64,000 nt of DNA from an uncultured Alphaproteobacteria bacterium (GTDB lineage Bacteria; Pseudomonadota; Alphaproteobacteria; Rhizobiales; Xanthobacteraceae): contig CAWBFP010000034.1 of assembly GCA_963788095.1 (NCBI GenBank), positions 25,540 to 89,539 on the forward strand. The letters are read 5' to 3'. Below, piece after piece: positions 5,724-46,070 of this stretch. Each line of letters opens with the position of its first letter. The first letter of the stretch is position 1. Both the position numbers and the translations under genes were made by a program. The notes under the pieces are model-generated. The model was not told the origin of the DNA. It saw nothing but the letters and a program-made list of their open reading frames with translations, and did not search any database.

Positions 5724-5792
5724 CGCCGACCGCCCCGGTGGGCAAAGATCCGCGGCCCTTGCGCCCAAAATGGGCGCAGAGTACGTTGTCTC

Positions 5793-20192: not shown

Positions 20193-20204
20193 CGTGTGCG
20201 TGAA

Positions 20205-20400: not shown

Positions 20401-20441
20401 GTCGTCGCCCGCGCGTTACGTCGTTCTCCGGTTCTTACGTC

Positions 20442-20999
20442 ATGATCGCCGACTCACGACCCAACCGCCGCACCATCCGTCTCAAGGACTATGACTACGC
20501 GCAACCCGGCGCGTATTTCGTGACGATCTGTACGCAGGATCGGGCATGTCTGTTTGGCGACGTCATGGATTATACAATGAAACTGAACGCTGCCGGATTG
20601 GTAACGACGCTATGGAACGAGGTTCCGGCTCGCTTTGCCAATGTTGATTTGGATATGTTTGTCGTCATGCCCAATCACATTCACGGGATTTTGCTGTACC
20701 CAGACGACGGGCCGGTCATGGCTGACTGCACGCGGGCGACCACAAGGGTCGCCCCTACGATCGGACAGGTGGTTGGTGCCTTCAAATCGTTGTCCACCGT
20801 CGAGTACGTTCGAAATGTAAATGCAAACGGCTGGCCGGCATTTCATTCACGCCTGTGGCAGCGAAACTATTATGAACACGTCATTCGTGATGAAGCTGAT
20901 TTAGACCGGATCCGCCGATATATCGATGAAAACCCAGCGCGTTGGGAATTTGATGATGAGAACCCACAGCGTGTCGATCGAGCGTCCTCGACTTTGTGA
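20442..20999 (+). mobile_element. REP-associated tyrosine transposase (RAYT, IS200/IS605 Y1 HUH family), 185 aa, containing an in-frame REP copy
   Basis: HUH motif (PNHIHGIL), catalytic Tyr region (RNYYEHVIRDE), GAFKSLST motif; lower GC than surroundings; flanked 5' by REP array; inverted REP at ~20727-20765 encodes ..DCTRATTRVAPT.. Confidence 0.75.
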
Positions 21000-21012
21000 A
21001 CGGTAAGCGAGA

Positions 21013-21382: not shown

Positions 21383-22615
21383 ATGACCGATCACTACGAC
21401 GCGCTCGAGACCCGCGATCGCCTGGCGCGCGAGAACGACCTGTTCGGGCGGCTGCCGGACGCCATCGCCCACGCGATGTCGGCGCCCGGCTGGGCCAATC
21501 ATCTGGCCGGCGTCGAGCCCCGAAAGATCACCTCGCGCCGGATGCTCGCGAGCCTGCCGGTGTTGCGCAAATCCGACCTGCTGCGGCTGCAACAGCAGCG
21601 ACCGCCGTTCGGCGGCTTCGCGGTGATCGCGCCCGGCAAGGCGAAGCGGCTGTTGATGTCGCCGGGCCCGATCTTCGAGCCGGAGGGGCACGGCGAGGAT
21701 CTGGCGGGGGCGGCGCGCGCTCTGTTCGCGGCCGGCACGCGTGCGGGCGACATCGTGCACAACTCGTTCTCCTATCATTTGACGCCCGGCGCCTATCTGC
21801 TGGAATCGGGCGCGCATGCGCTCGGTTGCGCCGTCATTCCGGGTGGGATCGGCAACACCGAACAGCAGGTCGACGCGATCGCCCATTACCGGCCGAGCGG
21901 CTATGTCGGCACGCCGGATTTCCTGAAGATCCTGCTCGATACCGCGGCCAAGAGCGGCAAGGACGCCGCGTCGATCAAGCGCGGCCTGGTCTCCGGCGCG
22001 GCGCTTCCCGCCTCGCTGCGCGACGAGCTCGGCGGGCGCGGCGTCGCGGTGCTGCAGTGCTACGCCACCGCCGAGCTCGGCGTCATCGCCTACGAGAGCG
22101 AGGCGCGCGAGGGCATGATCGTCAACGAGAACCTGATCGTGGAGATCGTGCGGCCGGGCACCGGCGATCCGGTGCCGGACGGTGAGGTCGGCGAGATCGT
22201 CGCCACCTCGTTCAACCCCGACTACCCGATGATCCGGCTGGCGACCGGCGACCTTTCGGCGGTGCTGGCCGGGCAGTCGCCGTGCGGGCGCACCAACATG
22301 CGCATCAATGGCTGGATGGGTCGCGCCGACCAGACCACCAAGGTCAAGGGCATGTTCGTCCATCCCGGACAGGTGGCTGAGGTGGCGCGGCGCCATCCGG
22401 AGCTCGGGCGCGTGCGCCTTGCGGTCGGCCGCGAGGGCGAGCAGGACGTGATGGTGCTGCATGCCGAATGCGCAACGCCGAGCGATGCGTTCGAGCAGAC
22501 GATCGCCGAGACGCTGCAGGCGGTGACCAAGGTCCGTGGCCGCGTGCAGCTGGTGGCGCCCGGCTCGCTGCCCAATGACGGCAAGGTGATCGCCGACGAG
22601 CGAAGCTATGCGTGA
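21383..22615 (+). CDS. phenylacetate-CoA ligase family protein (PaaK/F390 synthetase-like adenylate-forming enzyme)
   Basis: ~410 aa; PaaK-like N-terminus and AMP-binding core (SGYVGTPDFL, ATAELG, GDL..); start at internal Met of ORF 21158..22615, 4 nt after cupin stop. Confidence 0.8.
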   Translation: MTDHYDALETRDRLARENDLFGRLPDAIAHAMSAPGWANHLAGVEPRKITSRRMLASLPVLRKSDLLRLQQQRPPFGGFAVIAPGKAKRLLMSPGPIFEPEGHGEDLAGAARALFAAGTRAGDIVHNSFSYHLTPGAYLLESGAHALGCAVIPGGIGNTEQQVDAIAHYRPSGYVGTPDFLKILLDTAAKSGKDAASIKRGLVSGAALPASLRDELGGRGVAVLQCYATAELGVIAYESEAREGMIVNENLIVEIVRPGTGDPVPDGEVGEIVATSFNPDYPMIRLATGDLSAVLAGQSPCGRTNMRINGWMGRADQTTKVKGMFVHPGQVAEVARRHPELGRVRLAVGREGEQDVMVLHAECATPSDAFEQTIAETLQAVTKVRGRVQLVAPGSLPNDGKVIADERSYA

Positions 22616-22703
22616 ACGGGGGCGCGCTCGCCGAGCGCAACGGCTGTGACCACGAAATTGCGGGAGCGATACGCGTGCTCGATCCTGGATTGAACCGCTC
22701 GCC

Positions 22704-23318
22704 TCACCCCAGCGCGCCGATGTAGCGCCTGAAGCTCTCGTCATCGCGCAGCGCGGCCATCGAGGCCGCGTGCGTCAGCTCGCCACCTTCGACGAAAATG
22801 AAGCGCTCGCAGATCTCCTGCAAGATTTCGAGATGGTAGCGCGCCGTCGGATGCACGCACACGAACACCAGCCGGCCGTCGGCGCGCAGCCGGCGGAAGT
22901 GGTCGAGCATGAAGCCGATATAGCCGTCCTGGACGTTGAACTGCGGCTCGTCGAACAGGTGAATGAGCGGCGAGTGCGACCGCGCGCGTTCCAGCAGGAA
23001 GCTCGGCATGAGTTGCTTGAAACGACGCACCTGGTAGGACTGATGGTAGTGGATCGCCAGCCGTGAGCGTTCGCGGTAGCGGACGCGGTGGATGTCCTGC
23101 CCGGCCGTCATGACGCGCCCGCCACTCGGCTGATTGCTGCCGGTGATCAGCTCGAACAGCGTCGTCTTGCCCGAGCCGTTCGGCCCCATGACGCCGACAA
23201 TGGCAGCCTCCGGCACGACGAAATCGGCCCGCAGGCGAAACGTCGGCGTGCGATCGAGCAGGCCGCGCGTGTAGGTCTTGCGCAGGTCCTCGACCGCGAG
23301 CAGAGGTCTCGCGCTCAT
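22704..23318 (-). CDS. short ABC-type ATPase with degenerate signature motif (204 aa)
   Basis: Walker A GPNGSGKTT, Walker B IHLFDEP, H-loop VCVHP, but no LSGGQ signature; last gene of minus-strand Liv-type operon. Confidence 0.6.
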   Translation of the reverse strand: MSARPLLAVEDLRKTYTRGLLDRTPTFRLRADFVVPEAAIVGVMGPNGSGKTTLFELITGSNQPSGGRVMTAGQDIHRVRYRERSRLAIHYHQSYQVRRFKQLMPSFLLERARSHSPLIHLFDEPQFNVQDGYIGFMLDHFRRLRADGRLVFVCVHPTARYHLEILQEICERFIFVEGGELTHAASMAALRDDESFRRYIGALG

Positions 23319-23321
23319 CGC

Positions 23322-24020
23322 CTAGATCCCGAGCAGCCGATGCCGGCGCGCGGCGTCACGCTGGAGCTCGGCGGCAAGGCCGTCGTAGACGACAACACCC
23401 TGGTCGAGCACGTAGACCCGCTCCGCGACCGACAGCGCGAGGTCGCAGTTCTGCTCGACCAGCAGCACCGAGACGCCCTCGCGCCTGAGCCGGCGCATCG
23501 TCGTACACACATCGTCGACGATTTTCGGTGCCAATCCTTGGCTTGGCTCATCGAACAGCACGAGCCCGGGAGAACCGAGCAGCGCGCGGGCGATCGCCAC
23601 CATCTGCATTTCGCCGCCGGAGAGGTTTTCGCACTCGCGCCCGCGCAGATAGTCGAGCGCCGGGAAGATTTCGCAGACCTCCTTCTGGCTCCATGAGCGG
23701 TAGGGCGTGCGCTTCACTGCGATCGACAGGTTGCGTTCCACCGTCAGGGTCGGGAACACGCGGCGGTCGTCGGGCACCCAGGAAATCCCTGCGCGCGCGA
23801 TCTCATGCGTCGGCCATTGGGTAATGTTGAAGTTCGCAAAGCGAATGCGTCCGCGCCTGGCGGGGGTGAGGCCGAGGATGGAACGCAGCGTCGTGGTCTT
23901 CCCGGCGCCGTTGGGTCCCAGCAGTGCGACGATCTCGCCCGCCTCGACCCGCAACGACACGCCGAACAGCGCCTGCGTTTCGCCGTAGAAGGTATCGATG
24001 CTGGCGACTTCGAGAGTCAT
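23322..24020 (-). CDS. ABC transporter ATP-binding protein (LivF-like)
   Basis: GPNGAGKTT, LSGGEMQM, LVLFDEPSQGL. Confidence 0.85.
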   Translation of the reverse strand: MTLEVASIDTFYGETQALFGVSLRVEAGEIVALLGPNGAGKTTTLRSILGLTPARRGRIRFANFNITQWPTHEIARAGISWVPDDRRVFPTLTVERNLSIAVKRTPYRSWSQKEVCEIFPALDYLRGRECENLSGGEMQMVAIARALLGSPGLVLFDEPSQGLAPKIVDDVCTTMRRLRREGVSVLLVEQNCDLALSVAERVYVLDQGVVVYDGLAAELQRDAARRHRLLGI

Positions 24021-24021
24021 A

Positions 24022-24765
24022 TCAAGCCAGCATTCCGAAATTCGAGGCTTTCACCCACCTGTCGGTGCGCAAGGTCTCCGGCGTGCCGCGCGCGATCACC
24101 TGGCCCCACTGGATCACCGCCACGGTATCGGCGAGCTCGAACAGGAACCGCATGTTGTGCTCGATGATCACCAGCGTGACCTCCTCCTTGAGCCTGCGCA
24201 CCAAGTCGGCAAGGCGCGCGGTCGCCTCGGTCCCGAGACCGGAGGTCGGCTCGTCGAGAAACAGGATGCGCGGCTCGGCGGCGAGCGCGACGCAGATTTC
24301 AAGCGCCCGGCGATCGCCATAGGAAAGATTCCTGGCGAGCTCGCGCTCCTTGCCGACGAGGCCGACGCGCGCCAGCACGGCGGCGGCTTTGTCGGCGACC
24401 CTTGAATCCTGCCGGGTGTCGCGCAGCATGTGAAAACCCTGCCGCCGGCGCTCCGGCACGGCGAGCGCGACGTTCTCCAATGCGCTGAAGTCGTCGAACA
24501 GATTCATCAGTTGGAACGAGCGCGAAATTCCCATGCGTGCGATCGCCCGCGGCGTGAGCCCGGTGATGTCCCGGCCGTCGAGCACGACACGGCCGCCGTC
24601 CGGACGATAGCGTCCGGTCAGAACGTGGAAGCACGTGGTCTTGCCGGCGCCGTTTGGCCCGATGATGCCGCTCAGCCGTCCCTCCTCGAAGGCGAGATCG
24701 ATCGTCTCCAGGACCACGCGGTCTCCGAAGCGCTTGTGCAGCCGATGTGCCTCGAGCAGAGCCAT
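24022..24765 (-). CDS. ABC transporter ATP-binding protein (LivG-like)
   Basis: GPNGAGKTT, LSYGDRRAL, ILFLDEPTSGL. Confidence 0.85.
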   Translation of the reverse strand: MALLEAHRLHKRFGDRVVLETIDLAFEEGRLSGIIGPNGAGKTTCFHVLTGRYRPDGGRVVLDGRDITGLTPRAIARMGISRSFQLMNLFDDFSALENVALAVPERRRQGFHMLRDTRQDSRVADKAAAVLARVGLVGKERELARNLSYGDRRALEICVALAAEPRILFLDEPTSGLGTEATARLADLVRRLKEEVTLVIIEHNMRFLFELADTVAVIQWGQVIARGTPETLRTDRWVKASNFGMLA

Positions 24766-24768
24766 CGC

Positions 24769-25809
24769 TCACGTCCCGACGGGGCCGCCGGTGCGAAAAC
24801 TGGCGGCGGGCGCTCGCGCCCGCACCGCCGTCGTCCGCCGCCGAAGGTCCGCCCATAGCCCTGCCGCACCCTCGGGCTTGAACATCACCATCAGCATGAA
24901 CATCAGCCCGAACCAGAGCAGCCACGTCTCGGTGTAGGCGCCCAGAAGGTCGCGCGCGATGAAGTAGATGACGGTTCCGATGACCGGCCCCCAGAAACTG
25001 ACGAGACCGCCGCCGATCAGCACCATCAGCACAATCACCCCCGACCATTGCAAGCTCATCACCTGCACGAAGGCGCCACCCTGGCCCATGGCGAAGATGC
25101 CGCCCGCGAAGCCGGCGACCGCGCAGGACAGCGCAAAGCTCAGCCACTTGTAGAGCCACACATTGTACCCGAGGAATGCCACGCGCTCCTCGTTCTGCTT
25201 GATCGCTTGCAGGACGCGGCCGAACGGCGAGTTCACCAGGCGCCACAGCAGCACCGCGATGCCGACAAAGCAGGCGAACGCGAACCAGTAGAGCGCCGGG
25301 TTGGTGCGCAGCGGAAAGCTCACGATGCCGAAATCCGCCGGCAATCGGCGGATGTTGAGCAACCCATCTTCTCCCCCCGTCACCGAGGTCCACTTGCTGG
25401 CGATGAAGAAGAACAACTGGCTGAATGCGATCGTCATCAGCGCGAAATAGATTCCGCGCCGATGTGAAATGAAGCAGGCAACCGCAGCGCCGAAGACGGC
25501 CGCGACCAGGGTCGCCGCCAGCAAGCCGATCCATAGGTTCGCCACCAGGTGAAATTGCGTCAATCCCATCGCATAGGCGCCGATGCCGAAGAAGGCGCCG
25601 TGTCCGAACGACGGGAGGCCGGTGTGGCCGAACAGGACGTTGAAGCCGAGCGCGAAGATGCAAAACACCAGCACCTCGACCCCCAGATAGGGATAGAGGC
25701 CGACCTGATTGATCCAGAACGGCACGCTGCCGAACACCGCAAAGGCGACCAGCATCGGCTCGGTGATCCAGCCGCGCAGCCTGGCGATCGCGCCGCGGGC
25801 CGTTCTCAT
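24769..25809 (-). CDS. HAAT-family ABC permease (LivM-like)
   Basis: 346 aa polytopic membrane protein. Confidence 0.8.
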   Translation of the reverse strand: MRTARGAIARLRGWITEPMLVAFAVFGSVPFWINQVGLYPYLGVEVLVFCIFALGFNVLFGHTGLPSFGHGAFFGIGAYAMGLTQFHLVANLWIGLLAATLVAAVFGAAVACFISHRRGIYFALMTIAFSQLFFFIASKWTSVTGGEDGLLNIRRLPADFGIVSFPLRTNPALYWFAFACFVGIAVLLWRLVNSPFGRVLQAIKQNEERVAFLGYNVWLYKWLSFALSCAVAGFAGGIFAMGQGGAFVQVMSLQWSGVIVLMVLIGGGLVSFWGPVIGTVIYFIARDLLGAYTETWLLWFGLMFMLMVMFKPEGAAGLWADLRRRTTAVRARAPAASFRTGGPVGT

Positions 25810-26735
25810 CGCTCGAGGATGCTCTTCTTGCCGAGCAGGCCGCGCGCCCGGAACGTGACCACGGCGATCAGCAGCAAGTACATGGAGATCAGCGACCAGT
25901 CGGTGGCATAGGCCCCGGTCAGTCCGACGACGATGCCGATCATGAGGCCGGCCAGCACCGCGCCCCAGAAGCTGCCGACGCCACCGAGAACGATGACGAT
26001 GAAGGCCGGCACGACGGCGTCCACGCCGACGTGCGGACGCACGCCCCAGATCGGGGCCATGGTCACGCCGGCGACGGCCGCAAGACCAGTGCCGAAGGCG
26101 AACACGATCAGGCGCAGGCGCGGTAGATTGACGCCGAGCGCTCGCACCATCTCACTGTCGTGCGCACCGGCCTTGATGAGGGCGCCGTAAGGCGTGCGCT
26201 CGAGGAACAGCCACACCAGCAAGATCACGCCGATCGCGAAGGCGGAGGCATAGAACCGATAGGTCGAGTAGATGAGATCGCCGATCAGGAGGCCGCCGGT
26301 GATGCCGGATGGCAGCGGAAACGGCTTCTCCGCCGATCCCCAAATCACCCGGATCAATTCCTCGATCACCAGCGCGGCCCCGAACGTCAGCAGCAGGCCG
26401 TAGAGCGGGTCCTTGCCGTAGGTGCGCCGCAGGCAAAGCTCGAGCGCCATGCCGGCAATTCCGACCACCAGCGGCGCCGCAATGATGGCGACGACGAACC
26501 GCCAGGCCAGCGGAAGTCCGTAGTAGGGCGCCAGGAACTCGAAAGGCAGCGCGCCGGGCGGCAGGATGAAGACGAGCGCCACATACGCGCCGAGCGCAAA
26601 CAGCGAGCCGTGCGCGAGGTTGAGCACCTCCATCACGCCGACGATCAGCATGAAACCGAGTGCGACCAGCGCGAACAGCAGGCCAAGCGAAATGCCGTTG
26701 AGAAGGTGCGGCAGGAGATTGTAGAAGAAATCCAT
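25806..26735 (-). CDS. HAAT-family ABC permease (LivH-like)
   Basis: 309 aa polytopic membrane protein; 4-bp overlap with downstream permease. Confidence 0.8.
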   Translation of the reverse strand: MDFFYNLLPHLLNGISLGLLFALVALGFMLIVGVMEVLNLAHGSLFALGAYVALVFILPPGALPFEFLAPYYGLPLAWRFVVAIIAAPLVVGIAGMALELCLRRTYGKDPLYGLLLTFGAALVIEELIRVIWGSAEKPFPLPSGITGGLLIGDLIYSTYRFYASAFAIGVILLVWLFLERTPYGALIKAGAHDSEMVRALGVNLPRLRLIVFAFGTGLAAVAGVTMAPIWGVRPHVGVDAVVPAFIVIVLGGVGSFWGAVLAGLMIGIVVGLTGAYATDWSLISMYLLLIAVVTFRARGLLGKKSILER

Positions 26736-26974
26736 GACGTGGCCGACGACGTTAGGCGCAAGCCGGCAAGCACTGCGGACGACAAATCAACGGATATCGC
26801 GACACTTTACCTCTCAACCTGGGCCGTTTCACACCCTCGACCTCGCTCCGGTGCGCGAGACAAGGTCGAAGGGCGGCCCACGCGTCGACCTCGCGGGGCT
26901 TGCGGCCCAGCTAAGGAATCCGGGCCTGCGGGCTGCCGGCCTCAGCCCCAGGGCCGCCCGCAGGCTCGTGAAGC

Positions 26975-28258
26975 CTACATCTCGTAGGTTGGCGTGTCCT
27001 GGTAGGCCTCGAGCTTGCAGACGGACTCGCCCGGATCCTTCACGTCTTCCGGTTTGAGCGCCGTGACGATCTTGAAGTAGTCGGTATTGTCGACCGGCTT
27101 GTCGTTGGCGGCGCACAGGTAGACGGTCTGTTGCACGTGGTGCGAGTTGGGATCGATCCACGCGTCATGGTGCTGCATGCGGTCGACCGCCAGCATGCGA
27201 TGCCCCTCCAGCGCCTTGATCACCGCGATGTTGTTGGTGGTTCCGGCGCGTTCGACGGCACGGATCAGTTCGCGCATGGCGACATAGCCATTGTAGGAGA
27301 CGTTGCCGGGCACATCGATCGCGGCACGCGGCCAGCGCTTCTGGTAGCGGGCGACAAAGTCGGTGACGCCGGGCAGGTCGAGCTTGTGGTACCAGGTGGT
27401 CGCGAAGGTGCCGAAGGCGGCATCGAGACCCAAGCCGTAGATATCCGGCCAGTCCTGCTGATTGGTGAGCCAGGCCGGTTTCTTGTCGAGCTTCATGCTC
27501 ACGACCTGCTGTTTGAGCGTCTTGGCGTCGTCGCCGCCGACCGCGACCGTGACCACATCCGGTTTCGCCTGCTGGATCTTTAAGAGAATCGGCGAGAAAT
27601 CGCGGGTGCCGACCGGGACCAGGATTTCGTCGAACACCTCGGCGCCGAATTGCGTGCCGACGTCGCGGAACGACTTGGAGGTGTTATGGCCCCACACATA
27701 GTCGTTGGTGAGCAAGAGCCAGCGCTTGCCGTAGCTGTTGATCGCCGCCTTGGCGCCGGCGATGGCGAAGTTTGTCCCGTTGCCGTCCCACACGAATTTG
27801 ACGCGATGGCAGTCCTTGCCGGCTTCCGTCGGCGAGGACGAGTTGGTGTTGAAGTACACGGTGCCGTATTTCTGCGCCACTTGCCCGATGGCGTTGGCGA
27901 CGCCCGACTGGATGGCGCCGACCAGGAACGCGACCTCGTTGCGGGTAATCATGCGTTCGGCGACGCGCGTCCCGGTCGCCGGCGTGGTCTCGGTGTCGGC
28001 GTGGATGTGCGCGAGCTTGCGCCCGAGGACACCGCCTTTTTCGTTGGCCTCCTCGATCGCCATGACGGTGCCGCGCATCTCGTCCTGGCCGGCATTGCCG
28101 AACTGACCCGTGGCGTCGTGCGTGAGGCCGATCAGGATCGGCTTGTCGGTCTTCTGCGCCCAAACGTGGTTGTGCTTCCAAGGACCGAAGAAGGCGACAC
28201 CGGCAGCGGTCGTCCCCTGCAGCAGTGTCCGGCGTGAAAGCCGCGCTTTGCTCGTCAT
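26975..28258 (-). CDS. ABC substrate-binding protein (Leu/Ile/Val-binding family) with twin-arginine signal
   Basis: N-terminus MTSKARLSRRTLLQGTTAAGVAF (Tat motif SRRTLL); type I PBP. Confidence 0.8.
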   Translation of the reverse strand: MTSKARLSRRTLLQGTTAAGVAFFGPWKHNHVWAQKTDKPILIGLTHDATGQFGNAGQDEMRGTVMAIEEANEKGGVLGRKLAHIHADTETTPATGTRVAERMITRNEVAFLVGAIQSGVANAIGQVAQKYGTVYFNTNSSSPTEAGKDCHRVKFVWDGNGTNFAIAGAKAAINSYGKRWLLLTNDYVWGHNTSKSFRDVGTQFGAEVFDEILVPVGTRDFSPILLKIQQAKPDVVTVAVGGDDAKTLKQQVVSMKLDKKPAWLTNQQDWPDIYGLGLDAAFGTFATTWYHKLDLPGVTDFVARYQKRWPRAAIDVPGNVSYNGYVAMRELIRAVERAGTTNNIAVIKALEGHRMLAVDRMQHHDAWIDPNSHHVQQTVYLCAANDKPVDNTDYFKIVTALKPEDVKDPGESVCKLEAYQDTPTYEM

Positions 28259-28438
28259 GGCATGTCCTCCCCTGGATGATTTGGAATTTTGTGATGCGGC
28301 GCGAGAAATCCACCGGCCGCGAGCTTTTTCGTCAGGTTATCATACGACTGCCACACCGTCGCGCAAGCTTGCGAGAATCGCGGGCGGAAATGCCGGGGCC
28401 CCCATCGTCGCCGGGCCTGCGCGCGTCGGTTGCGCGGC

Positions 28439-29990
28439 TCACCTCGCCACCAGCCGCCCATCGACACCCGTCCGCACCGTGCCGAGCCGGCGGATATAGG
28501 CCATCACCTCGTTGGCCATGAGCGGCGCGTCGTTGTCGGGCGTCACACGCTTGGCGTCGCGAAAGGTGTCATAGCCGTCGCCGCCGCGCGCGATGAAATC
28601 GTTGACGGCGACGCGATAGAGCCGCGTGTCGGAGAGCGGCGCGCCCGCCACCGTCATGGCCAGCACACGGCTGCCTGGCGGCCGCCGCGGATCGAAGCTG
28701 ATGGTCATGCCCGACACCTGGGGGAAACGCCCGGCCATATCCGGCAGCTGGGAGAGGCCGTTCTCGATCGCCGCGTTGAGGTCGCGGCCGGCAATTTCGA
28801 GCACCACCAGGCGATTGCCGAAGGGCAGTTCGGCCAGGATGTCCTTGCGCGTGATGGTCGTGCCCGGGGGATAGACCTTGCCGCCGCGGATGCCGCCGCC
28901 GTTGGCGACCGCGGCGTCCGCCCGCATCGTGTCGCGCATGGCGTCGGCGAACAGGTCGCCGATCGCCGCCTCGCCCAACCGCACCGTGGCGCTGCGGCTG
29001 TCGAGCTCGACCGCCGTGGTGCCGATCGCAACGTCCATTCCACGGGTGAGCGTGGCCTCGAACTTGGCGACCTCGGCGGCGACCACCGGATCCGGCGTCA
29101 CGGTCGCGGTATCGATGACCCGGAACTGCGGCCACCACTTGGTCTCGCGCCGGCCCTGGCTGACGGTCACGACGATGCTGATGTCGATTGCGACCACGTA
29201 GTGGGCGTCGTAGCTCGAACTCGGCGATCGCGCTCAGCTCGTCGTAGGTGATGAACAGATCGTGGGTGTGACCGGTGAGCAGGAGGTCGGCGGCGCGGGC
29301 AAACTGCAGGGCAAGTGCGTCGCCGCGGGTCATATGCGCCACGGCGACCACGAAATCGGCGCCCTCCCGTCGCAGCGCCGCCGCCTGCGCCTTTATGGTC
29401 TCGACCGTCGGGGCGAAGCGTAGATCCTCGGGCGAGGCGGTCTGCGGCGTATCCTCGAAGGTCGCGCCGGTCAAGCCGATGCGGACGCCGTCGAGCTCGA
29501 CCACGGCGCGGTCCTTGATTCCGGCAATCGGCGCGCCGTCCGGTCCACGCAGGTTGGCGGCGAAGATCGGGAAATTGGCTTCGCCCATGCGCTCGAGGAA
29601 CGTCGCCTTGCCGAAATCGAACTCGTGATTGCCGGGCGCGAAGATGTCGGGCCGGATCATGTTGGTGAGCGCGATGATGTGCGCGCCGCGATCGAGCCCG
29701 GACATCAGCGAGGGTGACAGCGTATCGCCACCATGCGCAAAGATGACATGCCCGCCCTTGGCGCGCTCGGCCTTGACCACCGCGGCCAGCCTTGCGAAGC
29801 CGCCCCGGCTCTTGCCATCGAACATGACCTGCTCGTTCATCAGGTATATGTCGTTGGTGAGCAGGAAGGTGATGGCGGTCCGGTGCGTGGTCTGCGCGGT
29901 TGCCGGCGGCGCCAGGCCGACGACCGCCAAAACGGCGAGGGAGAGCACAATGGCGCGGCGCGTGATCGACATGGCGGCTCCTGACGACAT
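28439..29990 (-). pseudogene. bifunctional metallophosphatase/5'-nucleotidase (UshA-like), single frameshift near 29200-29230 splitting metallophosphatase N-domain (28569..29990 frame) from 5'-nucleotidase C-domain (28439..29197 frame)
   Basis: N-part: signal peptide, GDTLSPS, GNHEFD, GHTHD motifs; C-part 5'-NT C-terminal domain (GGIRGG, FPQVSGM); frames meet at ..AIAEFEL / YDAHYVVAIDI. Confidence 0.7.
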
Positions 29991-30099
29991 GCCGGTGCCT
30001 TACCACGCGGGCGTCGCCGCGAGCTACAGGCCGGCATGAACGAGAAGAGCTCGAGCTTCACGGCCGTCGGAGCAGCCGCTGCCGCCGCAGCATCCGGCC

Positions 30100-31102
30100 G
30101 TGGCGCGCGGCCGCATCGGCGTCCTGCTGGTCAATCTCGGCACGCCGGACGCGACCGACTACTGGTCGATGCGCCGCTACCTGAAGGAATTCCTGTCCGA
30201 CCGCCGGGTGATCGAGGAGAACCGCCTCAAGTGGTGGTTGATCCTCAATCTCATCGTCCTGACGGTCCGGCCGCGGCGCAAAGGGGCGCGACTACGACAA
30301 GATCTGGAACCGGGAACGCGACGAATCGCCGCTCAAGACCATCACCCGTGCGCAAGCCGAGAAGCTGGCGGCGTCGCTCGCGCCGGTCGCATCCGAGCAT
30401 CATCGTCGACTGGGCGATGCGCTACGGCAATCCGTCGATCCCGTCGCGCCTGGCGAGCCTGCAGGCGCAAGGCTGCGAGCGCATCCTGCTGGTTCCGCTC
30501 TATCCGCAATACTGCCGCCGCCACCACCGCGACGGTGTGCGACAAGGCCTTTCGATGCGCTCAAGCGCATGCGCTGGCAGCCGGCGCTGCGGGTGGCGCC
30601 GCCTTACCACGACGACCCGGTCTACATCGAGGCGGTGGCATCGTCGCTCGAGGCGGAGCTCGCCGAAGCTGCCGTTCAGCCCGAGGTCGTCATCGCCTCG
30701 TTCCACGGCGTGCCGAAGGACTATCTCGCACAAGGGCGACCCATACCATTGCCATTGCGTCAAGACGCGCGGCTGCTGCGCGAGCGGCTCGGGCCTGGAC
30801 GAGGAGCAGCTTGATGCTGACGTTCCAGTCGCGCTTCGGCACGCGCCGAATGGCTGCAGCCCTACACCGACGAGACCGTCAAGGCGCTGGCCAAGCGCGG
30901 CGTCAAGCAGCTCGCCGTCGTCACGCCCGGCTTCGCGGCCGACTGCCTGGAGACGCTGGAAGAGATCGCCGGCGAGAACGCCGAGATCTTCAGGCATGCC
31001 GGCGGCGAGAACTTTGCCGCGATCCCGTGTCTCAACGACGGCGAGCAAGGAATGCACCTGATCCGCCACGTCGTTCTGCGCGAGTTGCAGGGCTGGATCT
31101 GA
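30100..31102 (+). pseudogene. hemH: ferrochelatase with ~9 reading-frame changes; all segments recognisable
   Basis: Segments in three frames reassemble into full HemH: [33 protein letters not shown] / [26 protein letters not shown] / [38 protein letters not shown] / [12 protein letters not shown] / [28 protein letters not shown]...[12 protein letters not shown] / [10 protein letters not shown] / ARLLRERLG / LDEEQL / MLTFQSRFG / [46 protein letters not shown]...[23 protein letters not shown]. Confidence 0.8.
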
Positions 31103-31137
31103 CCGATTCCCACCATTGCGAGCCGAAGGCGAAGCAA

Positions 31138-31232
31138 TCGAGCGAGTGGCGAATAGCGAGTGGCGAATGGCGAGAGGGATTGGCGAGTGGCGACCTCTCC
31201 ATTCGCCATCGCTATCGCTGTCGCTATTCGCA
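31138..31232. repeat. second member of heptamer-hairpin repeat family (AGCGAGT GGCGAAT AGCGAGT GGCGAAT ... ATTCGCC ATCGCTA TCGCTGT CGCTATT)
   Basis: Same GCGAAT-type heptamers arranged as inverted arms in hemH-SPFH intergenic region. Confidence 0.7.
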
Positions 31233-31344
31233 TGATTCGCCGCGACGCTCCCTGCAATGACGAACAAGGCCGCGGCTTGCCTATTGCTGCGGCCCGGCGC
31301 GGGTTCCACAATCCGGCGCACGACGCGATCAGGGGGCCTCTCGC

Positions 31345-32367
31345 ATGTTTCCGCTCGGACTGGACATCTTCGTCATCGTCATCGTCGTGCTTGCCGTCCT
31401 CACCTTGTTCGCCGGCGTCAAGACCGTCGGCGCAAGGCTACAAGTGGACGGTCGAGCGCTTCGGCCGCTACATCCGCACGCTGTCGCCGGGCCTCAACCT
31501 GATCGTGCCGTACTTCGACCGCATCGGCCGCAAGATGAACATGATGGAGCAGGTGATCGAGATCCCGCAGCAGGACGTGATCACCAAGGACAACGCCACG
31601 GTCACGGTCGACGGCATCGCGTTCTTCCAGGTCTTCGATGCCGCCAAGGCGAGCTACGAGGTGTCCAATCTCGACCATGCGATCGTGCAGCTCACGATGA
31701 CCAACATCCGCTCGGTGATGGGCGCGATGGACCTCGACCAGATGCTTTCGCACCGCGACGAGATCAACGAGCGGCTGTTGCGCGTGGTCGACGCCGCGGT
31801 GTCGCCCTGGGGCGTCAAGGTCAACCGGATCGAGATCAAGGACATCATCCCGCCGGCCAATCTGGTCGAGGCGATGGGGCGGCAGATGAAGGCCGAGCGC
31901 GACAAGCGGGCCGAGATCCTGCAGGCCGAGGGCCAGCGGCAGTCCGAGATCCTGCGCGCCGAAGGCGCCAAGCAGTCGCAGATCCTCGAGGCCGAAGGGC
32001 GCCGCGAGGCGGCCTTTCGCGACGCCGAGGGCCGCGAGCGCCTCGCCCAGGCCGAAGCCAAGGCGACCGAGATGGTGAGCGAGGCGGTGGCGCGCGGCGA
32101 CGTCGCAGCTCTCAACTACTTCGTCGCCGAGAAGTACCTCAAGGCGTTCGCGCAACTTGCCGAATCGCCGAACCAGAAGATTCTCATGCTGCCGATCGAG
32201 GCGACGAGCGTGCTGGGCGCGCTCGGAGGCATCGGCGAGATCGCGCGCGCGACCTTCGGTCCGGACGGCAGGCCGCCGGCGCCGCCGGCGTCGACGACAC
32301 GGCGTCCCACCGGTGCCGCCGACAAGCCCTGGCGGCGTGGTCGTCAGACCGGGCGGACCGATCATGA
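31345..32367 (+). pseudogene. SPFH/band-7 (stomatin-like) protein, frame-disrupted at ~31425 and near C-terminus
   Basis: N-term TM MFPLGLDIFVIVIVVLAVLTLFAGVKTV in frame 1; SPFH core (QGYKWTVERFGRYIRTLSPGLNLIVPYFDRIG...EIKDIIPPANLVEAMGRQMKAERDKRAEIL..) in frame 2; frame-1 stop 32365-32367 overlaps nfeD ATG (ATGATGA). Confidence 0.7.
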
Positions 32368-32815
32368 TGAACGCACTCGTCGGCCTTGGCGTATGGAACT
32401 GGTTCATCCTCGGCGGCGTGCTGCTTGCGCTCGAGATCATTGCGCCCGGCACCTTCATGCTGTGGCTTGGGCTCTCGGCCATCGCGGTCGGGCTGATCTC
32501 GCTCGTCGATCGTTTGGCCGTGGCAGGCCCAGCTGGTCGCGTTCGCGGTGCTCTCGATCGCCTCGATCGTGCTGTGGCGCCGCTTCGGCGGGAAGGCGGA
32601 CGAGGTCCGCTCGCAGCCCTTCCTCAATCGGCGGGCGGAGGGATTCGTCGGCCGGGTATTCACGCTGGAACGGCCGATCGTCGACGGCGCCGGCGCGGTC
32701 CGGATCGGCGACACCATGTGGCAGCGTGAGGGGGCCGGACTCGCCTGCCGGCTCGCGCGTCAAGGTCAGCGACGCCGACGGGCCGGTCCTGATCGTGGAG
32801 CCGACCCGGGAATAG
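32364..32815 (+). pseudogene. NfeD-family membrane protein (partner of SPFH protein), 2 frame changes (~32505, ~32730)
   Basis: MMNALVGLGVWNWFILGGVLLALEIIAPGTFMLWLGLSAIAVGLISLV / ..SIASIVLWRRFGGKADEVRSQPFLNRRAEGFVGRVFTLERPIVDGAGAVRIGDTMWQ / ..GPDSPAGSRVKVSDADGPVLIVEP in three frames; NfeD OB-fold C-terminus. Confidence 0.6.
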
Positions 32816-33871
32816 CTACGCCACGCCGGCGCGCAAGAGATGGTGGAAGTGGACGATGCCGACCGGCTTGCCCGCATCGACCACCAGCAGGACCGACACT
32901 TTCGAGCTGTTGAGCAGTTCGAGCGCCTCGCTCACCAGCTGGTCGGGCCGCACGGTCTTCGGATCGCGCGACATGATGGCCTCGACCGCCACGTCCGGCA
33001 GGTCGGGCCGCAGCTGCCGCCGCAAATCACCGTCGGTGATGATACCGACGAGCTGTCCGGCACGGTCGGTGATGCCGACACAGCCCGCAACATACTCGCC
33101 TCCCTTGCGCGACATTTCGACGGCCGCCCGCGCCACGCGAGTGCCGAGCGGCGCCAGCGGCACGGCGTCGCCGGTCTGCATGACGTCGCGCACGAACTTG
33201 AGCTGGGCGCCGAGCCTGCCGCCGGGATGGAACACGCGGAAATCGATGGCGGTAAAGCCGCGGCTCTCCAACAGCGCGATCGCCAGTGCATCTCCGAGCA
33301 CGAGCTGCATCAGGGAGGACGTCGTCGGGGCCAGGTTGTGCGGGCAGGCTTCGCGCGCCGGCGGCAGCACCAAGGCGACCTCGGCGGCCTTGCCGAGCGT
33401 GCTGCCGGCATTGGCGGTGACCGCAATGAGGCCGATACGAAACCGCCGCGAATAGTCGGTCAGGTCCTTGAGCTCGACGGTCTCGCCCGACCACGACAGC
33501 GCCAGGATCACGTCGTCGGCGGTGATCATGCCGAGGTCGCCGTGGCTCGCCTCGCTCGGGTGGACGAAGAAGGCGGGCGTGCCGGTGGAGGCGAACGTCG
33601 CCGCGATCTTGCGCCCGACATGGCCCGACTTGCCCATGCCGGTGACGATCACGCGGCCGCGTGCGCCATGCATCAGCTCGACCGCCGCCGCGAACGCCGG
33701 TCCGAGGTCCGCCCGCATGGCCGCCGTGAGCTCGGCAATGCCACCCGCCTCGGCATCGAGCGTGCGCTCGGCCGACTCGATCAGCGCCCGCGTACGGTTG
33801 CGTGCGTCGGTGCGTGGTCGGGTCGTGGGCATGCGGTCCGGAATCAGGGAACGGTGGGGAGGAGATAGCAC
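32816..33871 (-). CDS. kpsF: KpsF/GutQ-family arabinose-5-phosphate isomerase (SIS + tandem CBS domains)
   Basis: SIS motif VIVTGMGKSGHVGRKIAATFASTGTPAFFVHPSEASHGDLG; two CBS domains at C-terminus; start may be internal (MPTTRP). Confidence 0.8.
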   Translation of the reverse strand: MLSPPHRSLIPDRMPTTRPRTDARNRTRALIESAERTLDAEAGGIAELTAAMRADLGPAFAAAVELMHGARGRVIVTGMGKSGHVGRKIAATFASTGTPAFFVHPSEASHGDLGMITADDVILALSWSGETVELKDLTDYSRRFRIGLIAVTANAGSTLGKAAEVALVLPPAREACPHNLAPTTSSLMQLVLGDALAIALLESRGFTAIDFRVFHPGGRLGAQLKFVRDVMQTGDAVPLAPLGTRVARAAVEMSRKGGEYVAGCVGITDRAGQLVGIITDGDLRRQLRPDLPDVAVEAIMSRDPKTVRPDQLVSEALELLNSSKVSVLLVVDAGKPVGIVHFHHLLRAGVA

Positions 33872-33994
33872 GAACCGGGCCCCGGCGGCGACCGCCGGGG
33901 CCCGGTCAACCCGGCGTTAACCATAGCCGTTTTATCCCCGTTAACCAGGGCCCGCCAGCCGCGAGGATGTCGCCCGTGCCTCGCGTTCGCTGCG

Positions 33995-34876
33995 CTAGCC
34001 GTTGCTCAGCAGCCGTTTGAGCTCCTCCCGGAATTCCGGCGCGATGTCATCGCGTGCCAGCGCATAGGCCACGTTGGCGGCGAGGAAACCGATCTTGGAA
34101 CCGCAATCGAAGATGCGGCCGTCGAAGCGGTAGCCGAAGAACGGCTGCGCATCGGCAAGCGTTCGCATGGCGTCGGTGATCTGGATCTCGCCGCCGGCGC
34201 CTGCGGCCTGGGTCTCGAGCAATGCAAAGATTTCCGGGTGCAGGATGTAACGCCCGGAGATCATCAAGTTCGACGGCGCCTGCGCCGGCGTCGGCTTCTC
34301 GACCATCGAGGTGACGCGAAAGCCCTTCCCGCGCGCCTCGCCGACGCCGACGATGCCGTATTGCGACACTTGCTCGCGCGGAACCTCCGACACCGCGATG
34401 ACGTTGCCGCCGCCGGTCTCGGCGTACACTTCAATCATTCCGGCGAGGCAGCCGGGCGCTGCCGCATGATGCAGCATGTCAGGGAGCAGCAGCGCGAACG
34501 GCTCGTTGCCGACCAGTTCGCGCGCGCACCACACCGCATGGCCGAGGCCCAGCGGCTCTTGCTGGCGGGTGAAGCTCGTCTGCCCGGCGCCGGGAAGCTC
34601 GGCTTCGAGCAAATCGAGCTCCGCGCTCTTGCCGCGCCTTTGCAAGGTGGCCTCGAGCTCGAACTGCTTGTCGAAATGATCCTCGATCACCCCCTTGTTG
34701 CGCCCGGTCACGAAAATGAAATGCTCGATACCGGCCTGGCGGGCCTCGTCGACCACGTGCTGGATCACCGGTCGGTCGACGACCGGCAGCATCTCTTTCG
34801 GCATCGCCTTGGTGGCAGGCAGGAAGCGCGTGCCGAGGCCCGCGACGGGAAAAACGGCTTTGCGGATGGGCTTCAT
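33995..34876 (-). CDS. galU: UTP-glucose-1-phosphate uridylyltransferase
   Basis: [45 protein letters not shown].. canonical GalU N-terminus; 293 aa. Confidence 0.85.
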
Positions 34877-35046
34877 GATCGGTCGAGCAGCGGGGGAGGG
34901 GCGGGAATCGCGATTTGCCCAACAGGCACAAATCCTTGGTGTGGGCAAGGGTTCCCATGGGCGCGCCGGCGGCCGGCTGCCAACAAGCTGCCACACGCGC
35001 GCCGCCCTTCGGGTCGACAATTCATGGGCATCTTGCAGGGAGTGCG

Positions 35047-36388
35047 ATGAGACGGTCGAAGCTGATTGCGAGCGCGGCTGCGTTGGCGGCGACTTTCGTC
35101 GGTGTCGTCAACGTGCAGGCGCAGGTGGACGAGCGGCTGCCGATCACGCTGCCACCGGTCGGATCGATCGGCTCCACCCTTGAGCCGGCGGCGCGCGAAT
35201 GGAGCGGGCAGGCGGGCGCGTCGGGTCATCCGCTCATGTCGGTCGAGGCGATCCAAGGCGCAGCCGCCAATTTTCCAGCTTGCATCGAGGGCCTATGGCC
35301 GGCCGCCGCGCGTCGCGGCATCTCGCGCCAAAGTTTTGACCGGCACGCGGCGGGGCTGACGCCCGATCTGCGCATCATGGACCTGCTCGATGCGCAGCCG
35401 GAGTTCGAGAAAGCGCTGTGGGAGTACCTCGACCTCCTGGTTACCGAGGAACGCATTGCGCGCGGCCGCGAACTCCTGGCGCAGCACAAGGCGACCTTCG
35501 ACGCCGTCGAGAACGCCTACGGGATCGACCGCCACGTGGTGGCGGCGATCTGGGGCGTCGAGACCAAGTTCGGGGCGATCACCGGCGAGCGTCCGCTCGT
35601 CCGCTCGACCGCCACGCTCGCCTGCGTCGGCCGGCGTCAGGACTATTTCCAGAATGAGTTCCTGGCGGTGCTGGAGATTCTCCACAACGGCGACGTCGCC
35701 GCCGATCAGCTCAAGGGCTCGTGGGCGGGGGCCTTCGGCGGCACGCAATTCATGCCCACCGTCTTCAAACGCTACGCCGTCGATTTCGACCGCGACGGAC
35801 CGCCGCAACCTGGTCGGGTCGATACCCGATCTGATCGCATCGACCGCCAACTACCTCAAGCAACACGGCTGGGTCGCGGGCCAGCCGTGGGGCTACGAGG
35901 TCGTCGTGCCCCAAAACTTCGACTATCGGCTGGCCGACCGCGCACGGGTGCAAACGATCCGGCAGTGGGAGCAGCTCGGCATCCGACGCACCGGCGGCAG
36001 GCCCTTCGAGCGGTCCGACGAGCGAGCCTACCTGTTGGTACCGGCAGGCGCCCGCGGCCCCGGTTTCCTGATGCTCGCCAATTTCCGCGCGATCATGCGC
36101 TACAATCCGGCAGAGGCCTACGCGCTGGCGATCGGACACCTCGCCGACCGTTTGCGGGGCGGCGAGCCGTTCCTGCAGCAGTGGCCGCGCGACGAACGCG
36201 TGTTGTCGCGCACCGAGCGATTGGAGCTGCAGCAGCGGCTGGCAAGCCGCGGGTTCGATATCGGCGAGCCCGATGGACGCTTCGGCCCCAAAACTCGCGC
36301 GGCGATCCGCGACTATCAGGCCGGCGCCGGGCTGGTTCCGGACGGGTTTGCATCTGGCGCGCTGCTGACGCGGTTGCGTGCGCAATAG
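35047..36388 (+). pseudogene. lytic murein transglycosylase (MltB family, C-terminal peptidoglycan-binding domain), one frameshift at ~35795
   Basis: Signal peptide [25 protein letters not shown]; MltB motifs (HVVAAIWGVETKFG, GSWAGAFGGTQFMP); after ..AVDFDRDG frame shifts to ..RRNLVGSIPDLIASTANYLKQHGW..; PG-binding repeat (LQQRLASRGFDIGEPDGRFGPKTRAAIRDYQ). Confidence 0.75.
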
Positions 36389-36485
36389 TCTTGCAGCGCC
36401 GCCAGAAGCCTATACCTTCGAGTTGACACTTTCCTCGGCTATCGGCGTTGATCCTCCGAGGGCGCATTCGCGAAGGCGAGCAGGC

Positions 36486-38146
36486 ATGGATCGCAGGGCC
36501 AAATCCGAACCGAGCCATCGCCGCACTGGGCTTTCGGCGGCGTTGCTGGCTGCCGGTTGGCTGGCGGTCGAGGGCGCCGCCGCCTTGGTCGGCGTGAGCG
36601 CGGTGGCGGTCCCGGCGCAAGCGCAGTTCTTTGACTTCTTCTCGCGTCCGCCCGGCTCGATTCCTGGTGGCGGGTACCAGCAGCGCAATCGGCAGCAGCA
36701 GCAGCGCGAACGCGGGTTCGGTTTCGGGTTTTTCGGCGGTGGCAATTGGAATTACCAGCAGCAGGACCCTTGGGCGCCGCCGCCGCCGCGCCGGGTCGAG
36801 CGGCCGCAGGTCGAGCGGCCGCAGCCGCAGGGGGATTTCAGCAAGGCGCCCCCGCCGGCGCGCAAGGAGGCCGACGCCCCCATCAGCGTCTTGGTGCTGG
36901 GGAACTCGATGGCCGATTGGCTTGCCTACGGTTTGGAGGACGCGTTCTCCGACACGCCCGAGCTTGGTGTCACGCGTCGCCATCGCACCGGGTCGGGCTT
37001 GCTGCGTAGCGAAGGCCGCGACGCCTACGACTGGGTGCAGGGGGCCAAGGATTCGCTGGCGCGCGACAAGGCGGACTTCGTCGTGATGATGATCGGACTT
37101 GGCGATCGTCACCCGATCCGCGAGCGCCAACCGGCGCGCGCGAACCAACCGGCGGGGCAGAAACCGGGTGAGCCGGCCAAGCCGGCGGAGGCCCCCAAGG
37201 CCGCCGATCCGGCCAAGCCTGCGAACCGCAAAGCCTGCCGAAGTCGCCAAGCCCGCCGAAACGGCAAAGGCCGGCGACAGCCAGGAAGCCGAAGTCCCGG
37301 CTCCGGAACAGCCCGCGCCCGCCGGGCCGGAGACTCGGGCGTCCTGGGGCCGTCGTATCGTATGAGTTCCGCTCCGACAAATGGAGCGAGATCTATGGCA
37401 GGCGCATCGACGAGACGATCGCCGCGCTGAAGACCAAGCGGGTGCCGGTCATATGGGTCGGCCTGCCGCCGATTCGCGGGACGCGATCGCGCGCCGAGGT
37501 GTCGTTCCTGAACGAAATGTACAAGGCGCGAGCAGAGAAAGCGGGGACCGTCTACGTCGATGTCTGGGACGGCTTCATGGATGAATCCGGCGAGTTCTCG
37601 AACTTCGGGCCGGACATCATCGGGCAGAACCGCCGCCTGCGCGCCGGCGACGGCGTGCACTTCACCAAGGCTGGCGCGCGCAAGCTCGCGCACTATGTCG
37701 AGCGCGAAATTCGCCGGTTGCTCAACCAAGCGACCCCGGTCGCGTTGCCGATTCCTGATGAACCGCAGAAACCCTTGGCCGTGCCGCAGCCGAGCGGCCC
37801 TGCGCCGCGGCCGGTAGCCGGACCGGTGGTGCCACTGACCGGGCACACGCCCGCCGCGGAAGCGCTGCTCGGGAGCGCCGGGCAAGGCAACATCACGGCC
37901 GATTCGGTTGCGGTGCGCGTGCTGGTGAAGGGCGAGCCGGTCGAAGCGCCTAGCGGCCGAGCTGACCATTTTTCCTGGCCGCGCACCGATGGCGCCGCCG
38001 CCGACCAGATCGAGCCGGCGGACCCGATCGCGTCCGCCCAGCCTCGCCCGGCCGCTCCGGCGGCCGCGGCGCGCGCGGCTCTCCCGCGCGCGGGCCAACG
38101 GCCGCCGGCGCAGTCGGACGCGAAGCCGGCGCGGGCCGTGCGTTAG
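36486..38146 (+). pseudogene. SGNH/GDSL hydrolase family protein (DUF459-like) with internal Pro/Ala/Lys-rich low-complexity insert; at least 2 frame changes (~37225 and 37355-37363, the latter a 5-bp tandem duplication tcgta-tcgta)
   Basis: N-part: signal/TM, Q-rich region, VLVLGNSMADWL (GDS(L)-like block); C-part in another frame: SYEFRSDKWSEIYGRRIDETIAALKTKRVPVIWVGLPPIRG...DGVHFTKAGARKLAHYVEREI. Confidence 0.6.
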
Positions 38147-40578: not shown

Positions 40579-45294
<4,716 letters not shown>

Positions 45295-45726
45295 CGTCGT
45301 CCCCTTGCGGGCCGGCAACCGGCCCGGCGTATCCGCCTCGCCCGCGGTGCGTCGCACACCGCGGCCGCAAGGCCGATCAGTTGTCGGTAGCGGCTCTTTT
45401 GGTGCCGCCTGATCAGCGCCCGCTGGGGCACCTTGCCGCTTGAGCCATCCGCGGTGCCCGAACGCACCGCCTCCTGGCCTCATTCCACGCCGGCGCCGGG
45501 GGTACGGCCCATCTTCGGCGGCGGGCGGGGCTCACTTAAGTCAGTAATGCTGTCCTATCTGTACCCTGCCAAATTTTCGATGTCGAGACAAGGGTAGAAT
45601 GTTCCAAAGATACGCATTTCAGGGGAATTTTGATAGTCGCTGTCCGCAGGAGCGGCATTTCCGCAATGTTGTTTCGCGGGCTCGGTAGGGCGGGTGGCTG
45701 CCTTGGCTCAGGGCTCCCGACGGGCT

Positions 45727-45743
45727 GGCTTGGCAAACTTTGC
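45727..45743. promoter_or_regulatory. perfect 17-bp palindrome TTGGCAAACTTTGCCAA ~40 bp upstream of parD, followed by tatatgct -10-like element: candidate ParD operator
   Basis: Read directly in low-GC intergenic region between gltB (divergent) and parD. Confidence 0.5.
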
Positions 45744-45781
45744 CAAAAGAGCCTATATGCTGAGACGAATAGGGTGACAAA

Positions 45782-46063: not shown

Positions 46064-46070
46064 TCGACTG

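Follow-up and report, generated by a model that had tools for sequence, protein, structure and literature searches.

Frame-disrupting single-base indels in six neighbouring genes of a Xanthobacteraceae contig are very probably uncorrected long-read consensus errors

A total of 22 frame-changing single-base insertions and deletions, distributed over six genes, were identified in a 64,000-nucleotide stretch of a Xanthobacteraceae contig (hereafter the window) by comparison with metagenome contigs of the same species sharing 97–98% nucleotide identity. The frame changes are almost certainly consensus errors because independent same-species assemblies carry every gene intact, and we hold with high confidence that they are uncorrected errors in a long-read assembly, an artefact and not biology. 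Locally poor consensus was the first of three explanations listed in the original prediction, and it is supported here by the intact independent assemblies, the absence of accompanying substitutions and a nanopore-like error signature.

Indels were catalogued against the same-species contigs L047 and L048, which are 97% identical to the window at the nucleotide level (Table 1). The ferrochelatase gene hemH contains 12 of the 22 events, followed by the Band_7/SPFH and DUF459 genes with three each, NfeD with two, and the 5'-nucleotidase and the mltB-like gene with one each; these gene identities are consistent with Pfam calls on intact orthologues. Insertions make up 18 of the 22 coding events. 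The original prediction had named the same six genes and was correct that they are disrupted, but its count of at least 17 changes was too low. Intergenic DNA holds around ten additional single-base indels, comprising nine deletions at 31179–31337 and one at 33954. The worst affected interval, 30.05–32.73 kb, has 27 indels per 2.7 kb (~1%), and an indel rate of ~1% would be roughly that of a single read. Once its frame is reconstructed, the hemH protein has 95–96% identity with intact 352-aa ferrochelatases. All three DUF459 indels fall in an Ala/Pro/Lys-rich linker, and a 39-mer bearing an NfeD insertion has no match among the JGI contigs, while its insertion-free version has one.

Table 1 Features of the frame-disrupted block and its edges, in window coordinates; +1 and -1 are single-base insertions and deletions relative to same-species contigs
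Feature	Coordinates	Strand	Details
Left block edge, population structural-variant junction	28436..28439		Flanks differ among contigs
5'-nucleotidase (Metallophos + 5_nucleotid_C)	28439..29972	-	Intact form 510 aa; one insertion, 29219 (+1)
Ferrochelatase hemH	30036..31102	+	Intact form 352 aa; 10 insertions and 2 deletions, each single-base
hemH +1 events	30056, 30279, 30382, 30514, 30552, 30664, 30728, 30790, 30808, 30843	+	Relative to L047/L048
hemH -1 events	30679, 30767	+	Relative to L047/L048
hemH-SPFH intergenic region	31103..31344		242 nt; heptamer tandem arrays; nine 1-nt deletions at 31179-31337 when aligned to same-species contigs
Band_7/SPFH (stomatin-like)	31345..32367	+	Intact form 339 aa; +1 at 31431, 32313, 32353
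NfeD	32364..32815	+	Intact form 149 aa; +1 at 32507, 32725
kpsF-type arabinose-5-phosphate isomerase (SIS + CBS)	32816..33832	-	Intact
galU (NTP_transferase)	33995..34876	-	Intact
mltB-like lytic transglycosylase (SLT_2 + PG_binding_1)	35047..36388	+	Intact form 446 aa; C inserted at 35800 (+1)
DUF459/SGNH hydrolase	36486..38146	+	Intact form 553 aa; 37222 (-1), 37226 (-1), 37336 (+1)
Right block edge	38146..38146		L047 alignment ends; AAA ATPase gene there instead of gltD

Based on the open reading frame list, a GC3 frame plot and a codon-usage HMM applied across the 64 kb, same-strand frame switches without stop codons occur only at ~29.2–37.4 kb. Each of the other same-strand frame transitions has a stop codon within ~13 nt, and these are therefore ordinary gene boundaries. 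In all, 22 events fall in ~7.3 kb of coding sequence inside the block versus none detected in ~47 kb of coding sequence outside it, a clustering that far exceeds chance. No indels were found in kpsF, galU, gltD, gltB or the tested coding stretches outside 28.4–38.2 kb, and these four genes, together with the 1157-aa open reading frame, are uninterrupted as originally claimed. Because kpsF and galU are clean in mid-block, the block consists of several patches and not of one uniformly bad stretch. The indels are also not the gene-only feature that had been described; the densest cluster lies in intergenic DNA, with nine deletions within 160 nt, and the non-coding indel density equals or exceeds that of the coding sequence. 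An Rfam scan returned just a tRNA and the mmgR sRNA, both far from the block, so it offers no RNA element that would explain the frame changes.

Ten JGI contigs from ten samples, with 94–98% identity to the window and the same gene order, contain all eight genes in intact form, and none of the 22 indels is present in any of them. All 22 are likewise absent from L057, an 80-kb contig with 94% identity, and from L001 (87% identical), the closest genome relative of the window, which is itself a nanopore MAG with its own independent errors nearby, including one at a GANTC site. Frameshifts apparently common to the window and L001, in NfeD and the DUF459 linker, would have pointed to real ancestral lesions; these were rejected using the 97%-identical intact references, leaving the DUF459 events (-1, -1, +1) and the NfeD insertions at 32507 and 32725 as specific to the window.

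These comparisons bear directly on programmed recoding, in which ribosomal frameshifting or transcriptional slippage would read through the shifts and the genes would still be expressed. The segments flanking every shift are indeed conserved and without stop codons, and the site at 29219 in the 5'-nucleotidase recurs in three assemblies. However, the site that recurs falls in the GANTC methylation motif, for which nanopore errors are documented, the sites share no slippery motif and have heterogeneous contexts, and twelve shifts in one gene, with compensating pairs 15 nt apart, fit no known recoding system. Orthologues with 87–98% identity are contiguous at every site, and with intact contigs from the same species recoding is effectively refuted; we assign it a negligible probability.

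A second alternative is an engineered, chimeric or mis-joined segment, made of foreign DNA or DNA assembled artificially; it draws on the observation that synteny with some relatives breaks at the block bounds (28436–28439 and 38146). To the left of 28436–28439, different DNA is carried by L001, L049 and L053, whereas the ABC-transporter flank of the window runs unbroken over this junction in the natural contigs L048, L050 and L056, and the right flank (gltD) is also found in L001. Independent contigs span both junctions, and neither GC content nor codon usage changes at the block edges. As contigs share flanks across each edge, the breakpoints represent natural polymorphism between strains rather than mis-joins. 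Natural metagenome contigs from ten samples match the block collinearly at 97–98% identity, which leaves the engineered or chimeric origin raised in the original prediction unsupported and extremely improbable.

Purifying selection is still visible in the broken genes. NfeD has two insertions and no mismatches over 450 aligned nucleotides, and the 5'-nucleotidase has one insertion and 0.8% mismatches. Mismatches at codon positions 1, 2 and 3 number 7, 6 and 18 in hemH, 2, 1 and 13 in Band_7, 6, 4 and 31 in the mltB-like gene, and 12, 6 and 38 in DUF459, and third positions take 58–81% of mismatches in the five broken genes having any. No in-frame stop was found in the reconstructed frames of the broken genes; together with the codon-position pattern of the mismatches, this upholds the earlier observation that stop codons and substitution decay are absent. 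The interruption of several adjacent conserved genes by frameshifts resembles the pseudogene clusters of reductive evolution, but real pseudogenes gain substitutions and stops, lose third-position bias and are common to related strains, none of which applies here. Neither the stops and even codon-position spread of relaxed selection nor any lesion in common with the same-species contigs was found in these genes, and 11 of the 18 coding insertions have non-repeat contexts.

Could the strain nevertheless have acquired the 22 frameshifting indels very recently, for example in a local error-prone repair tract, with the loss of ferrochelatase, SPFH/NfeD and cell-wall enzymes? The deposited sequence does contain the indels, and sequence alone cannot exclude events too young for substitutions to have followed. 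Furthermore, hemH is a distinct allele mosaic and the strain is therefore identical to no reference. Against this stand the lack of decay, illustrated by the two indels of NfeD beside zero substitutions, the equal or higher indel density in non-coding DNA, and the location of most events outside slippage contexts. After a first hit, the further ones of the twelve in a 1-kb gene of an essential pathway would be purposeless, the ten same-species contigs are all intact, and an identical signature tracks sequencing technology among relatives. We consider real, very recent mutation to be very unlikely. A more specific version, in which a burst of single-base insertions over ~8 kb in one strain, for example in a tract of error-prone repair or recombination between the strain-variable junctions, inactivated ferrochelatase and five neighbours before any substitutions arose, is in our estimation slightly less probable again.

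The sequence context of the events is mostly non-repetitive. Eleven of the 18 coding insertions have no adjoining identical base, and runs of four or more bases contain no coding event. Slippage fails as an explanation because so many of the coding insertions are not beside an identical base; homopolymer slippage was accordingly rejected. Homopolymers, mentioned in the original prediction, do not form the main indel context, and the recent burst of slippage mutations proposed there finds no support. We also considered whether both alleles of a strain SNP had been written side by side. Such tandem alleles fit the insertions at 30056, 30279 and 30843 directly and that at 30382 via L001, but ~2 of 11 coincidences are expected at wobble sites and of insertions placed at random in four-fold codons, two-thirds would mimic the pattern, making the idea statistically inseparable from chance and a suggestion only.

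A minority of the errors coincide with a methylation motif. The insertion at 29219 sits within a GANTC site, the GACTC of the reference being GAACTC in the window, and the event at 31329 sits within GAATC. At GAG-T-TCGAGCTA, the 5'-nucleotidase frameshift is found again at the identical position in two Microflora Danica (MFD) loci (L039:16890 and L043:16964). Among MFD frameshifts, 7 of 113 are in GANTC plus one base compared with 1.3 expected (P = 4e-4). The methyltransferase CcrM is general in Alphaproteobacteria, and for a few of the events, such as those at 29219 and 31329, the probable cause is a systematic mis-call at a GANTC site methylated by CcrM. These findings are in keeping with a report of GANTC-linked nanopore assembly errors in Brucella (PMC12392509), with the recurrence of 29219 in two other assemblies and the GANTC enrichment in related MAGs as points of likeness, but published methylation errors are mostly substitutions and the events in the window are 1-nt insertions or deletions. 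As a general cause GANTC methylation was rejected, given that it covers only ~2–3 of the window's ~33 events.

The wider error signature was examined in 41 related loci, 27 of which belong to MFD nanopore MAGs. Across nine orthologous genes, 113 frameshifts were counted over 82.5 kb in the nanopore-only MFD loci, 101 (89%) of them +1; short-read MAG loci of the same family have three doubtful frameshifts over 61.4 kb and no +1 event. The codon HMM likewise identified as many as 37 candidates in a 21-kb MFD locus, patchily distributed, with 18 inside 2.5 kb in L003, and 0–2 in each short-read locus (Mann–Whitney P = 3e-4). The patchy pattern was seen directly in nine of the 27 MFD loci. MFD MAGs come from Flye assembly followed by a single Medaka round, with no polishing by short reads; the authors checked their catalogue for possible nanopore-associated errors and observed reduced coding density among some lower-coverage MAGs (PMC12313526). 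The window resembles low-coverage nanopore-only assemblies and MAGs in that single-base indels split conserved genes in patches and are not found in short-read assemblies of the same taxa. It departs from the classic description of false nanopore frameshifts, which stresses deletions in long homopolymers, in that insertions dominate among the coding events and lie mostly outside homopolymers. The strong bias towards insertions (18 of the 22 coding events) counts against the consensus-error explanation.

From this error signature and the make-up of its relatives, we infer that a long-read assembly gave rise to the window; the likeliest source is a nanopore-only MAG of a soil Xanthobacteraceae, in which ~29.2–37.4 kb would retain single-base consensus errors in six genes that are intact in the organism. 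The exact gltD protein of the window matched no existing record. The block lies between two junctions at which co-occurring strains differ in gene content, and its consensus was probably built from very few reads or from mixed strain haplotypes. The mixed-strain idea fits the fine-scale allele mosaic seen in the hemH part of the window.

Comparison with same-species sequences indicates that hemH, SPFH/NfeD and the 5'-nucleotidase, mltB-like and DUF459 genes almost certainly all function in the organism. Annotation of the contig as deposited would list six false pseudogenes or ~20 fragment open reading frames, and metabolic reconstruction would wrongly call ferrochelatase missing. The importance of the finding is thus one of quality control and not of biology. 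Related nanopore-only soil MAGs, which are used as species representatives, commonly contain frameshifts of this patchy and insertion-biased kind. Because such frameshifts are common in these MAGs, with a subset recurring at GANTC, any gene loss or pseudogene inferred from genomes of this type should be confirmed at read level or with short reads.

Long spurious ORFs are plentiful in the window because of its 67% G+C content; despite these, the true coding frames were clear from third-position GC and a codon-usage hidden Markov model (HMM). Both indicated repeated same-strand changes of coding frame without any stop codon between ~29.2 and 37.4 kb, confirming the cluster of frame-disrupted genes claimed in the original prediction, and every same-strand frame change in the rest of the 64 kb lay within ~13 nt of a stop codon, as expected of an ordinary gene boundary. 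Complete conserved proteins were recovered for all six broken genes by protein-guided, frameshift-aware alignment. The genes initially described as intact, namely kpsF (SIS + CBS), galU, gltD, gltB and the 1157-aa ORF, were all uninterrupted, and the gene names given from the sequence matched the Pfam assignments of intact orthologues. We consider the block to be, with high confidence, a known type of assembly artefact. This supports locally poor consensus, the first explanation listed in the original prediction, since the events were absent from same-species contigs and their signature was that of nanopore MAGs.

A genome-collection scan using kpsF as query returned 46 loci, all from Xanthobacteraceae-like MAGs of the Pseudolabrys/Variibacter type. 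The closest of these, L001, shared 84–93% nucleotide identity with the window over aligned segments (84–88% inside the block) and was collinear with it, except that window positions 22.6–28.44 kb were absent. A protein search with the reconstructed window ferrochelatase identified intact 352-aa ferrochelatases (95–96% identity) on contigs from ten JGI samples (L047–L056). These contigs have a DNA identity to the window of 94–98%, the same gene order and all genes called full length (products of 510, 352, 339, 149, 338, 293, 446 and 553 aa), and such same-species contigs (~97% nucleotide identity) were the reference for the indel catalogue. Against them, 18 of the 22 coding indels were +1, and the densest stretch (30056–32725) had 27 indels over 2.7 kb. 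Comparison of indels inside and outside the block by alignment, as first suggested with the prediction, showed that the outside regions covered by same-species contigs (16.4–22.6 and 25.6–28.4 kb) had indels only in non-coding DNA.

Single-base indels of the block, with Pfam families of intact orthologues, and Rfam features of the window
Feature	Position(s)	Strand	Change	Family or evidence
5'-nucleotidase	29219		+A	Metallophos + 5_nucleotid_C
hemH, ten insertions	30056, 30279, 30382, 30514, 30552, 30664, 30728, 30790, 30808, 30843		+1	Ferrochelatase
hemH, two deletions	30679, 30767		-1	Ferrochelatase
hemH-SPFH spacer	31179–31337		nine single-base deletions	
SPFH gene	31431, 32313, 32353		each +1	Band_7
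NfeD gene	32507, 32725		each +1	NfeD
kpsF-galU spacer	33954		one single-base deletion	
mltB-like gene	35800		+1	SLT_2 + PG_binding_1
DUF459 gene	37222, 37226		each -1	DUF459
DUF459 gene	37336		+1	DUF459
mmgR (suhB family) small RNA	56161–56233	+		Rfam, above gathering threshold
tRNA	57756–57827	+		Rfam, above gathering threshold

None of the indel events of the window was found in the ten same-species contigs, in L057 (a contig of 94% identity) or in L001 (87%). In an exact scan, the insertion-bearing 39-mer at 32507 had no match, and an 80-kb contig contained its insertion-free counterpart. Indels occurred independently of substitutions, as NfeD was identical to its intact orthologue over 450 nt apart from its two insertions, and the bin 32501–33000 contained two indels and no mismatches. 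Mismatches in the broken genes were still strongly biased to third positions, implying that purifying selection was active until effectively the present, and the indel load of non-coding DNA was at least that of coding DNA. Replication slippage, which the original prediction had offered as an alternative, was ruled out as the source because 11 of the 18 coding insertions had no adjoining identical base and no coding event fell in a run of ≥4 bases. For twelve indels in one 1-kb gene (hemH), among them a +1 and a -1 separated by 15 nt, there is no rationale in selection or mutation. That a real and recent burst of mutation made the indels is thus highly improbable. Frameshift positions that L001 and the window seemed to share in the NfeD and DUF459 genes were, judged by the 97% references, independent errors of two nanopore assemblies.

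Among related loci, frameshifts followed the sequencing technology. Loci of nanopore-only MAGs from the Microflora Danica (MFD) catalogue carried up to 37 HMM frameshift candidates per 21-kb locus, with at least five in 9 of 27 loci, compared with 0–2 in each short-read MAG locus (Mann-Whitney P = 3e-4). Protein-guided alignment of nine orthologous genes gave 113 frameshifts over 82.5 kb in MFD loci, 101 of them (89%) +1 insertions, versus three doubtful frameshifts over 61.4 kb in short-read loci, located at protein termini or linkers and none of them +1. The MFD candidates were patchy: 18 lay within 12.65–15.19 kb (12653–15185) of the otherwise almost clean locus L003, and 14 within 2.5–7.6 kb (2473–7557) of L015. 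False frameshifts ran along the whole of L031, L042 and L043, and in L001, where the NfeD and DUF459 genes are broken, they were seen at 11305, 11175, 4148, 4033 and 3570. MAGs related to the window that serve as GTDB species representatives carried dense patches of this kind. The MFD long-read catalogue was built from nanopore reads only, using metaFlye (nano-hq) and one Medaka round, and its authors, checking for potential nanopore-associated errors, reported that some MAGs of lower coverage had a reduced coding density (PMC12313526). The events of the window were likewise mainly +1 (18/22 coding), mostly outside homopolymers and patchy, and from this shared signature we infer that the window is probably a product of nanopore-type sequencing.

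In Alphaproteobacteria, CcrM methylates the motif GANTC. The 5'-nucleotidase frameshift reads GAG-T-TCGAGCTA on the minus strand against GAGTC in the reference (inserted base between hyphens) and recurs at L039:16890 and L043:16964, so that three assemblies are frameshifted at one and the same codon. Seven of the 113 MFD frameshifts fell in GANTC plus one base (1.3 expected, P = 4e-4), with further 1-nt insertions inside GANTC sites at L003:4791, L043:5937, L032:5674, L039:10406 and L001:4033, taking the forms GAN-T-TC or GA-A-NTC. In otherwise clean MAGs such as L039, these were the sole frameshifts seen. The window deletion at 31329 also disrupts a GAATC. GANTC-associated errors have been reported in Brucella nanopore assemblies (PMC12392509), and the recurrent insertions are probably systematic errors linked to CcrM methylation. 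This link accounts for a few window events, not for the whole patch.

Inverted 7-nt tandem arrays occur in two intergenic regions, at 16446–16623 (TAGCGAA x7, then CCATTCG x6) and 31141–31240 (GCGAATG x7.6, then ATTCGCT-type units), and could pair as long hairpins. Copy number is strain-variable (L049 has an additional 21 nt, or three units, at 16594), and the nine deletions of the hemH-SPFH spacer cluster at the second array. An apparently non-coding, low-GC (58%) segment at 20187–21012 includes 4.8 copies of a 34-nt repeat unit at 20210–20374 (CGTAGGGGCGACCCTTGTGGTCGCCCGCCAGATA), which has a palindrome inside it (GGGCGACC...GGTCGCCC); given its poor alignment to L049, the segment is probably REP-like and variable. 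Two stretches of 1.0–1.4 kb called non-coding by the HMM, 4469–5868 and 45352–46343, the latter starting inside the long gltB ORF (40579–45483) at its 5' end, could be genes of atypical composition, RNA genes or regulatory regions.

Natural structural polymorphisms within the species mark both edges of the block. Left of 28436–28439, L001, L049 and L053 have other DNA and L048, L050 and L056 have the ABC-transporter flank of the window; to the right of 38146, an AAA ATPase gene replaces gltD in L047. The left flank is a 5.8-kb strain-variable island (22600–28436, minus strand) with genes for an ABC-transporter permease (BPD_transp_2) and a substrate-binding protein of 427 aa (Peripla_BP_6). 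L048, L050 and L056 cover the part nearest the block, L049 has other DNA in place of the entire island, and the island ends on the right where the error block begins. When co-occurring strains meet in one assembly graph, a shared segment bounded in this way is probably either crossed by few strain-specific reads or polished from a mixture of haplotypes. The window tracks one haplotype in long runs at 28.4–30.1 kb, and in hemH it switches at fine scale between two known haplotypes and private alleles, half of the latter being natural alleles present in L001 or L057, which is consistent with mixed-haplotype polishing. At three insertion sites both neighbouring bases were the two population alleles, a number not significantly above chance, and the indel density of ~1% fits essentially one-read support equally well. 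For users of nanopore-only MAG catalogues, the block is a cautionary case.
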